Shown here in pieces: positions 9,486 through 11,170 of a stretch of DNA of 64,000 bases. The translations under genes were made by a program, and so were the position numbers. The stretch is from the sequence record MF158044; one strand, given 5' to 3'. The notes beneath the pieces are model-generated. The model was not told the DNA's origin and did not search any database. It was given only the letters and a program-made list of their open reading frames with translations. How positions within the stretch are numbered: position 1 is the first letter of the stretch; the number at the start of each line of letters is the position of its first letter. Origin of the DNA: Shigella phage Sf18.

Positions 9486-9744
9486 TATAGCTTATTTGGC
9501 AGATTTTTTATAAGGCTACTGCCATCCTTCCGCACCCGACCTGACCTCGCCCAACCTTACCTGACTGAACCACACCCGACCAAACATCACTTAAAAACCC
9601 TTTTCAAAGACTCTTAAGTGATGTAATCGAATTTTTATGTAGCTCCGATTAACTACCCATACCTAACCCCACCTTGCCACACCGAACCAGACCAAACCCA
9701 GCCTCATTAAAAGACCCTTTTAAAGACCTTTTAAAAAGGAGCCT
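9486..9744. repeat. composite repeat module A (pentamer NNACC tracts plus two hairpin modules)
   Basis: Two tracts of about 10 tandem 5-bp units with ACC every 5 nt; inverted repeat CATCACTTAA-N19-TTAAGTGATG; palindromic TTTTAAAAG-rich block; paralogous to 10886-11170. Confidence 0.6.
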
Positions 9745-9758
9745 CCGAAGAGGCTACC
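9734..9758 (-). terminator. intrinsic terminator
   Basis: On - strand AGCCTC-UUCG-GAGGCT hairpin followed by T-run, immediately downstream of the 9767 gene end. Confidence 0.45.
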
Positions 9759-9766
9759 TAGTCAAC

Positions 9767-10207
9767 TTAGAAAGGTTTTCTACGTTGCTTGTTAATGTTA
9801 GCTTTCATGGCAGCTAAATGGTTTTGCTGTTCAATCAGTCGTGAACGTTCTTGATGACTAAGTGCCATAGTGTTCACATTCTCAATCGCTTGAGTGGCTT
9901 GTTTTAAAGCACGACCAATCTTACTAGACATTTTACGTTTTGCAATAGTTGCTTGATGTTTAGGTTCCACCACACGATAACCAACACCCATTGAAGTGAC
10001 CAGATAAATCTTCTCTTCTTTAAGAAGCTTCTCAATAAACTTCTCAAGTCGATTTAGGCGTGTAAGTGCGTAAGCTTTCATTTCATCTTCGTACTTAACA
10101 ATGTCACCTTGATAAGTCGGCTTCACAATACCTAAGAAGGTGTCCATCTCAGAGTGTGATACAGTATCACCGTAACTGAACTTTGCTGCTAATGCTTTTG
10201 TATTCAT
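9767..10207 (-). CDS. hypothetical protein (cassette gene 2)
   Basis: 146-aa ORF; flanked with 10210-10812 by paralogous repeat modules. Confidence 0.4.
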   Translation of the reverse strand: MNTKALAAKFSYGDTVSHSEMDTFLGIVKPTYQGDIVKYEDEMKAYALTRLNRLEKFIEKLLKEEKIYLVTSMGVGYRVVEPKHQATIAKRKMSSKIGRALKQATQAIENVNTMALSHQERSRLIEQQNHLAAMKANINKQRRKPF

Positions 10208-10209
10208 AA

Positions 10210-10812
10210 TTAAACATTACCTTCTGAAATAACTTCTACAGAAAAACGACCAAAGCGTGGACGCCAATCACCTACACCACAAAGGTTGCCAGCATTTTCC
10301 AGAACCATCAAGAGTTCTTCTTTGGTAATTTGTTCTTCATCGAACATCAAACCAAACTCTACAGACCAGTCACGGAAGATTGGACGGTAGCTCATAACTC
10401 GTGCTGTGCCAATCTTAACAGACTTCGCATAGATAAAGTCTTGGTTCTTAGCTAGTTCTTGTGGGTTTGCTGGACAGTTCTTAATAGTCATTGGGAAGAC
10501 TACATCTGTCAGCATAATGGCTCGGTCAATTACCTTACCAAGTTTGTTGAGTTTTGCACCAGACTTGATACAAGCCTCAATCATCTCACCGTTCATAACA
10601 AAACCTAGTTGCTCGTCGTAGTAACAAGAGGTTACCAGTTGACTCTCTGCTAAGAGAGCGTAGTCTTCGTCAGTCTTTTTACGTTTACTAGACAGAGACT
10701 TGTGATACTTTGTCAGAGGATTTAATGGGTCTGACAGAGTATCAGCATGGCTCAGGAAAGGACGAGTGCCAGTGATTTTGATATTTAACAGTTTCATAGC
10801 ATTTAGCTCCAC
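10210..10812 (-). CDS. hypothetical protein (cassette gene 1)
   Basis: 200-aa ORF beginning with GTG in the track; no recognisable motif. Confidence 0.35.
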
Positions 10813-10885
10813 ACTTTAGTTGATTGTTAAGTTGTTTGTAAAGAACCCTCAACAGAAGACTCTTTAGAAACTTGGTAGATTTTTA

Positions 10886-11170
10886 ACGTGGCTACTACCA
10901 TCCACCCTTACCTCACTTTACCTAACCTGACCTTACCAGACCCAACCGGACACTACCCTACCTAGCGAAACCTCATTAAAAGACCCTTTTAAAGACCTTT
11001 TAAAAAGGTGAGTCTCATTTTAATGTAGCTGAGACTAACTACCCTCACCAAACCGGACCAGACCCAACCCAGCCATACCAGACCATACCACACCCAACCG
11101 AACCGAACCTTACCGAGCATCACTTAAAAACCCTCTTAAAAGACTCTTAAGTGATGCTGGTGAGTACCCG
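10886..11170. repeat. composite repeat module B (paralogue of module A)
   Basis: Same components as 9486-9744 (NNACC pentamer tracts, CATCACTTAA inverted repeat, CCTCATTAAAAGACCCTTTTAAAGACCTTTTAAAAAGG block) but with the two hairpin blocks in swapped order. Confidence 0.6.

Follow-up and report, generated by a model that had tools for sequence, protein, structure and literature searches.

The element analysed here is a two-gene cassette lying between tracts of a pentamer repeat in Shigella phage Sf18 (MF158044), within a window of 64,000 nt, by which we mean the whole stretch of DNA that was analysed. Its closest described relatives are the systems called VIPR (for Viral Interference Programmable Repeat), known from two bioRxiv preprints of 2026. 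A VIPR system has three kinds of parts: a phage-encoded ancestral RAMP protein (Vipr, ca. 20 kDa), an accessory vap gene, and vrRNAs, each made of 9–16 YNNGG repeats and then a conserved 3′ tail with a pseudoknot (bioRxiv 10.64898/2026.04.26.720920). The NN dinucleotides pair with double-stranded DNA, one base being skipped per repeat (10.64898/2026.04.26.720920). The type locus is that of Escherichia phage SUSP1 (Ounavirinae), whose vrRNAs are RNAs of ca. 100 nt that co-purify with Vipr and repress transcription, and the natural targets of the SUSP1 clade lie in a satellite phage found in E. coli genomes (10.64898/2026.04.26.720920). The SUSP1 tracts are also reported to work when expressed in trans. 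Cryo-electron microscopy (cryo-EM) has revealed a right-handed filament with one Vipr protomer per repeat, and the residues that hold the GGY have been named (10.64898/2026.04.26.720927). The 3′ pseudoknot of the SUSP1 vrRNA is reported in both preprints (10.64898/2026.04.26.720920; 10.64898/2026.04.26.720927).

The window comes from a Mooglevirus (Ounavirinae, Felix O1-like), with an identity of 99.6% to Shigella phage Sf17 over the region. We conclude, with a probability of roughly 95%, that the region holds a VIPR system of type II, belonging to the SUSP1 clade, in a Mooglevirus near Sf17, because of its minus-strand vrRNA anatomy, the match of its accessory protein Vap1, and the presence of targets with a one-base skip for four out of four guides. 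It is an element already described and not a new kind of system; an earlier sequence-only reading, which did not recognise the family, is superseded in this respect by the match to VIPR (10.64898/2026.04.26.720920; 10.64898/2026.04.26.720927). The likeness to SUSP1 extends to gene order, promoter, terminator, the conserved blocks A and B upstream of the guides and three or four tail types, to Vipr and Vap1 (99 and 98% identical), to GGYNN guides of 9–15 units, and to targets that, by the 1-nt skip rule, fall in E. coli satellites of the same kind. Unlike SUSP1, which has one vrRNA upstream and three downstream, this phage has two on each side; all four guide sequences differ, and the phage that carries them is a Mooglevirus and not a Suspvirus.

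Two other systems deserve comparison. Like the backbones of class 1 CRISPR-Cas (Cas7, Csm3 or Cmr4 on crRNA), VIPR places one protomer per fixed RNA step, with a thumb that periodically flips bases out and a structured handle that caps the guide. However, the step is 5 nt with three bases sequestered, against 6 nt with one flipped base in class 1 CRISPR, the guide information is non-contiguous, the encoder is a lytic phage, and there is neither a repeat-spacer array nor cas1/cas2 or other cas genes. In the window, the repeat search found no CRISPR array (28–37-nt direct repeat), and there was no Rfam family and no Cas match in Pfam, PADLOC or NCBIfam. The other system is TRAP on the trp leader RNA of Bacillus. 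There too a short conserved triplet recurs every 5 nt on RNA and is read by successive subunits of an oligomer, but TRAP is a closed 11-mer ring of unrelated fold that regulates in cis, with uninformative spacers and no DNA target.

Guide tracts, structured tails and targets

A phase-aware scan of the whole 64 kb found in-phase ACC tracts only at 9510–9603, 9637–9730, 10886–10989 and 11018–11141, all on the plus strand, with 7–9 in-phase ACC per 50 nt in each of the four, against a background maximum of 4 on either strand. The pentamer tracts that the sequence-only reading had placed on both sides of two open reading frames (ORFs) are therefore real and unique to this locus within the window. 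Their description as almost G-free went too far: G is indeed depleted on the plus strand, but there are still 4–7 G per 50–75 nt, ca. 8–13% compared to a background of 20%. Read on the minus strand, the NNACC tracts become a GGYNN motif, with 15 units in up1 and 14 in up2 (the tracts upstream of vipr) and 10 in dn1 and 11 in dn2 (those downstream), counting the junction unit. Repeat statistics were obtained from 461 units in 40 distinct Ounavirinae and satellite tracts, which have 8–16 units each. The GGY was strongly conserved (G1 0.89, G2 0.99, Y3 0.99), and the NN positions had entropies of 1.92 and 1.89 bits, with 16 different dinucleotides in use. The four tracts are minus-strand guide-RNA genes (vrRNAs), consisting of 9–15 GGYNN repeats and a hairpin-pseudoknot tail of ca. 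30 nt.

Each tract has its own hairpin, four in all, in which the stem varies (Table 1) and the loop is conserved. A change from GGCAG/CTGCC to GGTAG/CTACC had already been noticed as compensatory; the change is real and belongs to the tail stem, although the hairpins are four and not two. The pseudoknot is formed by the four bases just 5′ of the stem, which pair with four bases of the loop. Among 27 distinct tails, which represent just 4–5 tail types and hence few independent substitution events, all five pairs of the core stem covary, and the pseudoknot helix is paired in 100% of the cells with three of its four pairs changed on both sides. Overall, tail pairing reached 90% of the cells, compared to 29–43% in slid controls, and none of 500 shuffles attained the observed score. 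SUSP1 vrRNA1 and the vrRNAs of the satellite have a tail of the up2 type as well. Rfam at the gathering threshold gave zero matches across the 64 kb.

The satellite was found by comparing the locus by BLAST with 5,426 complete E. coli genomes. Matches of ca. 90 nt to vrRNA tail and tract appeared in 141 chromosomes, within a chromosomal island of 10–12 kb (for example L130:13147-25216, and also in L131, L132, L134 and L136–L142). Its genes comprise small ORFs, an HNH endonuclease, a tape measure protein, a baseplate protein and a large serine recombinase, and its integration sites are several (a DUF72 gene, near tonB, near wrbA). The satellite is highly mosaic and often disrupted by insertion sequences, and the family occurs in 560 of the complete genomes (ca. 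10%). Strains NCCP15648, T2 and TB182A are among those that bear it. It has its own vrRNA gene with a phage-type tail (L130:14973-15176, minus strand), preceded at ca. 40 nt by a sigma-70 promoter (TTGACG-16-TATAAT) and followed, beyond the tail, by an intrinsic terminator. Homologues of vipr and vap were found nowhere in the satellite island.

Each of the four guides was scored with skips of 0–3 bases against the sequence of 12 satellite loci, 243 kb in total. Outlier matches were obtained with a skip of 1 only, skips 0, 2 and 3 remaining at background. The up1 guide matched 24 of 28 positions in a satellite ORF of 92 aa (in L134, L140 and L142), where the base that is skipped falls on the wobble position (shuffled-guide maximum 22), and the up2 guide 23 of 26 positions in a non-coding satellite leader (L136:2057-2095; maximum 21). 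The matches of the two downstream guides were perfect: 18/18 for dn1 in a satellite serine recombinase gene (L140:12515-12541; maximum 16), and 20/20 for dn2 in a different serine recombinase gene, again with the skip at the wobble position (L136:10659-10688; maximum 17). According to the VIPR preprint, wobble is the typical position of the skipped base. Within the window there was no self-target at ≥80%, the best skip-1 self-match being ≤71%. The phage would use VIPR to silence a satellite that would otherwise parasitise it.

Vipr, Vap1 and the weighing of other explanations

Vipr of Sf18 and SUSP1 are identical at 193 of 195 residues, V189I and I190M being the sole differences, above the >90% identity that the preprint takes to define a clade. 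Its AlphaFold2 (AF2) model has a pLDDT (predicted local distance difference test) of 95. The protein has the RAMP fold, which is made up of an RRM core, a glycine-rich loop and a thumb. Of the nine positions described as contacting the GGY, eight are identical by number (H17, R138, D177, W178, R179, E71, M72 and C173); for the ninth the cryo-EM preprint gives T175, but the GenBank record of SUSP1 has V there, as does this phage, so that 9/9 positions equal SUSP1. Vap1, the gene of which adjoins vipr, shares 143 of 146 residues with the product encoded downstream of vipr in SUSP1, which the preprint text gives as a predicted DNA-binding protein. Neither protein had a match in Pfam, PADLOC or NCBIfam, and PHROGs returned only families of "unknown function".

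By analogy with SUSP1, Vipr would polymerise on vrRNA in this phage. A minus-strand sigma-70 promoter would be followed by two vrRNA genes, vipr, vap1 and a terminator, with two more vrRNA genes beyond. In the way shown for SUSP1 in the two preprints, each repeat would be bound by one Vipr protomer with the GGY flipped out and the NN presented, the NN series would pair with double-stranded DNA so that every third target base is skipped, and binding to the target would repress transcription.

Several points speak against this interpretation. Both papers on which it relies are preprints, and for this phage the expression of the vrRNAs, their ends and the repression would be as in SUSP1, from which they are extrapolated. 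The list of targets is a sample, drawn from the satellite loci given above. The skipped base of the dn1 target is at codon position 1 and not at the wobble position, the fold search assigned no fold to Vap1, and dn1 and dn2 come after a hairpin resembling an intrinsic terminator.

The sequence-only reading had proposed an element acting at the level of DNA, i.e., tracts that serve as cooperative sites for an oligomeric DNA-binding protein, or as recombination sites that make the cassette excisable. This would account for the presence or absence of the cassette among close relatives, for the single hybrid unit retained by Felix O1 and mio, for a unit number that varies between 1, 4 and 5, and for the same guide body being joined to different tails in different phages. 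However, in such an element, as in an iteron or centromere-like array, the whole site should be conserved, whereas only the GGY is, two of the five positions being near-random. The hairpin and pseudoknot covary in the manner of an RNA structure, the NN series, read with gaps, has perfect matches in foreign DNA, the cassette has no integrase or recombinase gene beside it, and in SUSP1 the tracts, which are nearly identical, are transcribed and purify together with Vipr (10.64898/2026.04.26.720920). We therefore regard a DNA-level element as very improbable. What survives of it is the oligomer, since the 5-nt period does reflect one subunit per repeat, although one that reads RNA and not this DNA; the half-helical-turn geometry once invoked is irrelevant. 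Likewise the cassette is accessory, being found in about half of the Ounavirinae records; the tracts, however, are guide-RNA genes of the minus strand and no site of recombination, and their NN dinucleotides spell targets in the E. coli satellite.

An RNA-level alternative to VIPR is an attenuator like that of TRAP, in which a ring-shaped RNA-binding protein on GGU repeats of a 5′ leader would control termination or translation of the two genes in cis. TRAP sites are spaced 5 nt apart, the same spacing as here, two of the tracts have a strong promoter on one side and the start codon of vipr on the other, and in unrelated phage contigs the tracts are often just upstream of a ribosome-binding site and ATG. 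Yet half of the four units are downstream of the operon terminator, the satellite vrRNA genes stand alone, each with a promoter and a terminator to itself and without vipr next to it, and no antiterminator/terminator alternative overlaps the tracts. The motif is GGY and not the (G/U)AG triplet of TRAP, and hypervariable NN with perfect targets in trans would be unexpected for a cis attenuator, so that this explanation appears even more remote. Hardly any weight can be given to a structural or replication feature that encodes no protein-read code, such as an origin with an R-loop or two-tier G-quadruplex (from a G-rich, C-poor transcript) or a decayed pentanucleotide microsatellite. The strong strand asymmetry, the sense strand being rich in G and T immediately downstream of a strong promoter, and the site between DNA ligase and polymerase genes would suit it, but there is no inflection of the GC skew at the locus (the switches are near 17 kb and 56 kb), many viable relatives are devoid of the element, a decayed microsatellite should be homogeneous while 16 NN dinucleotides are used here, and the tail pseudoknot and satellite matches would be left unaccounted for. 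Two further candidates were discarded: a Rho-utilisation or anti-Rho tract on the plus strand (no promoter was found on that strand and all local genes are on the minus strand) and an array of T7-type primase recognition sites (only GGY is conserved).

Organisation of the VIPR locus

The minus strand carries every gene around the cassette, the neighbours encoding small hypothetical proteins as well as DNA ligase and DNA polymerase. Read along the sense strand, the features are promoter, block A, tract, hairpin, block B, tract, hairpin, the 195-aa ORF, the 146-aa ORF and the terminator, and after the latter block B, tract, hairpin, block A, tract and hairpin (Table 1). The GC skew of the window flips sign at ca. 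17 kb and ca. 56 kb, where gene strand also changes; neither position is near the VIPR locus.

Table 1. Features of the VIPR locus of Sf18, listed in the sense of the minus strand (window coordinates)
Feature	Position	Strand	Description
Putative sigma-70-type promoter TTGACA-16-TATACT	11187..11214	-	11/12 consensus positions; same sequence upstream of SUSP1 vrRNA1
Block A, 5′ flank of vrRNA up1	11116..11158	-	Inverted repeat AGCATCACTTAA-N19-TTAAGTGATGCT; kept in relatives
vrRNA up1 guide tract	11040..11114	-	14 GGYNN units + junction unit GGGTA; NN code AA TC TC TG GT AT CT AT TG TG CT CC TT GA
vrRNA up1 tail	11007..11039	-	Hairpin AGTCTCA/TGAGACT + pseudoknot, GUAG with loop CUAC
Block B, 5′ flank of vrRNA up2	10973..11010	-	U-run immediately after up1 tail hairpin
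vrRNA up2 guide tract	10903..10972	-	14 units, 3 degenerate; NN code TT TA AG AG CC TG CT AA CA TA AA GA AA
vrRNA up2 tail	10874..10902	-	Hairpin GGTAG/CTACC + pseudoknot, GUGG with CCAC
vipr	10210..10797	-	195-aa RAMP (Cas7-like) protein
vap1	9767..10207	-	146-aa VIPR accessory protein; PHROG 5926, function unknown
Intrinsic-terminator-like hairpin AGCCTCTTCGGAGGCT	9740..9755	-	Followed by the U-run that begins block B; identical in SUSP1
Block B, 5′ flank of vrRNA dn1	9704..9739	-	Repeat search
vrRNA dn1 guide tract	9654..9703	-	9 GGYNN units + junction; NN code TG TT CT TC GT AA GG TA AT
vrRNA dn1 tail	9625..9653	-	Hairpin AATCG/CGATT + pseudoknot, GUAG with CUAC
Block A, 5′ flank of vrRNA dn2	9584..9624	-	Repeat search
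vrRNA dn2 guide tract	9527..9581	-	10 units + junction; NN code CG GT TC CA AA TG GA CA CG GC
vrRNA dn2 tail	9498..9526	-	Hairpin GGCAG/CTGCC + pseudoknot, AAGG with CCUU
A/U-rich inverted repeat, 19 bp	9451..9497	-	Directly 3′ of last vrRNA tail, ends array

As judged from its sequence, the putative promoter upstream of block A would drive the first vrRNA and the vipr-vap1 operon. Its −10 element is overlapped by an inverted repeat, GGTGAGTA...TACTCACC (11161–11200), and this GGTGAGTA...TACTCACC repeat may be an operator, or a structure formed in read-through transcripts of the ligase gene. The terminator-like hairpin (9755→9740) stands 3′ of vap1, the second ORF. At the other end, the promoter of the next gene (9478→9450) has its −35 element, TTGACA, within the loop of the A/U-rich repeat that ends the array. 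This repeat may act as a terminator of the array or as a promoter occluder, or it could tie expression of the downstream gene to vrRNA transcription.

The flanks had been described as two conserved blocks, and most of that description stands. The inverted repeat CATCACTTAA-N19-TTAAGTGATG is perfect in both copies (9585–9623 and 11118–11156; arms of 10–12 nt and a 19-nt loop), a second block of 38 nt, CCTCATTAAAAGACCC...AAAAAGG, is present at 9702–9739 and 10971–11008, and the opposite order was also recovered, with A before B on the left and B before A on the right. The blocks are both there, but they are not truly distinct, since in the alignment of the repeat finder A and B are homologous variants of one element. 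Both are kept in phages and have no counterpart upstream of the satellite vrRNA, the 40 nt preceding which are unrelated to them. The hairpin of block A had no covariation support, its outer stem pairs being mismatched in SUSP1 and Moogle. Read as sigma-70 promoters (TTAARA-N17-TTTAAT/TTAAGT), the blocks were weak and below the criteria of the promoter scan. The U-run starting block B comes after the operon terminator or after the preceding tail hairpin, and because block B starts in this way, the blocks may join the 3′-end signal of one vrRNA to the start or processing signal of the next. We infer that both blocks are signals by which the guides are expressed or processed. In the available text of the VIPR preprints there is no description of how the ends of type II vrRNAs are formed.

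Relatives, guide recombination and wider occurrence

By tblastn, the 195-aa protein was ≥90% identical in 117 phage records, ≥95% in all but one, and more distant copies (23–43%) were found in Pseudomonas, Mycobacterium, Gordonia and Listonella phages. The two-gene cassette was present in about half of the Ounavirinae records. A search for related loci with a neighbouring 126-aa protein gave two loci only. Felix O1 and phage mio are without both ORFs, and the one unit left in them joins the 5′ part of the first unit to the 3′ part of the last. This vrRNA-like unit (Felix O1, L005:2960-3095; mio, L006:2905-3040) comprises a promoter, block A, a tract of ca. 10 GGYNN units that are partly degenerate, and a tail of the GGCAG type. 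Either recombination of the first unit with the last has left it as a deletion scar, or it is a guide-only gene that would need Vipr in trans.

Unit number (1, 4 or 5 among relatives) and unit order vary between near-identical phages; phage bumzen, for instance, has a layout of 3 + 2 units. In the record of wV8 part of a unit carries the label "DR_4". One guide body occurs with different tails and array positions (L042 and L093), SUSP2 and wV8 have half a guide in common, and a phage pair shares the first half of a guide while the second differs. Shared bodies or halves can be seen at L042:1414-1483 and L093:7939-7998, and at L129:3243-3307 and L003:3257-3316 (minus-strand indices). They point to recombination inside guide cassettes as well as from one cassette to another. 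Because cassette presence, unit number and the tail joined to a guide body all vary, we conclude that recombination between units occurs, and intra-array recombination fits as the simplest origin of the single unit of Felix O1.

A further idea is that the flanks are homology handles for guide renewal and, relatedly, that vrRNAs without vipr are guide-only parasites; we put it forward tentatively, and think it rather unlikely to be right. Block A or B on the 5′ side and the tail on the 3′ side could let guides be duplicated, deleted, swapped or made chimeric by recombination, an exchange that could take place among co-infecting Ounavirinae and with satellites. The vrRNAs of Felix O1, of mio and of the E. 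coli satellites, the last with the same tail, may borrow Vipr in trans. Neither handle-based guide exchange nor guide-only vrRNAs are treated in the available text of the VIPR preprints.

Outside this group, an exact scan of IMG/VR for ACC(NNACC)x6 gave at least 120 stretches. Among the matches listed there were many unrelated contigs with heterogeneous NN, often with several stretches per contig, and the GGYNN strand was often the sense strand just upstream of genes. A hidden Markov model (HMM) built from the Vipr alignment matched ORFs in at least 42 of the stretches found by pattern only, at least 35 of them outside Ounavirinae, with E-values down to 1e-60. Other array styles were seen in unrelated viral contigs (L102–L104 and L125 of IMG/VR, and L023–L026 and L063–L067, contigs of ca. 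188–190 kb). In one, long NNACC runs have CTGCC at every 10th unit; in another, jumbo-size contigs contain many separate tracts, each after a variable-stem hairpin and ...CC TCACC TTACC. These styles are probably other VIPR types, some with Vipr HMM matches. The pattern also catches homogeneous microsatellites, (CGACC)n, (AGACC)n, (TGACC)n and (GAACC)n, that are not vrRNAs (L011, L014, L016, L028–L030, L049, L090, L091, L114 and others). A screen by pattern therefore needs a filter for NN diversity. With ACC(NNACC)x6 there is a cheap annotation handle for Vipr loci that are now overlooked by Pfam, NCBIfam, PADLOC and Rfam.

With VIPR, a new form of RNA-based DNA recognition has been described, in which a minimal Cas7-like protein reads a gapped NN code, and from which CRISPR effectors have been proposed to descend. 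The window provides an independent, purely computational replication, with the same anatomy in a Mooglevirus. With the four new guides the skip rule holds at 1 nt and at no other length, which reproduces the published rule and target class. If the tentative idea on the flanks were true, flank-mediated exchange would be a Cas1-independent way for these phages to renew their guides.

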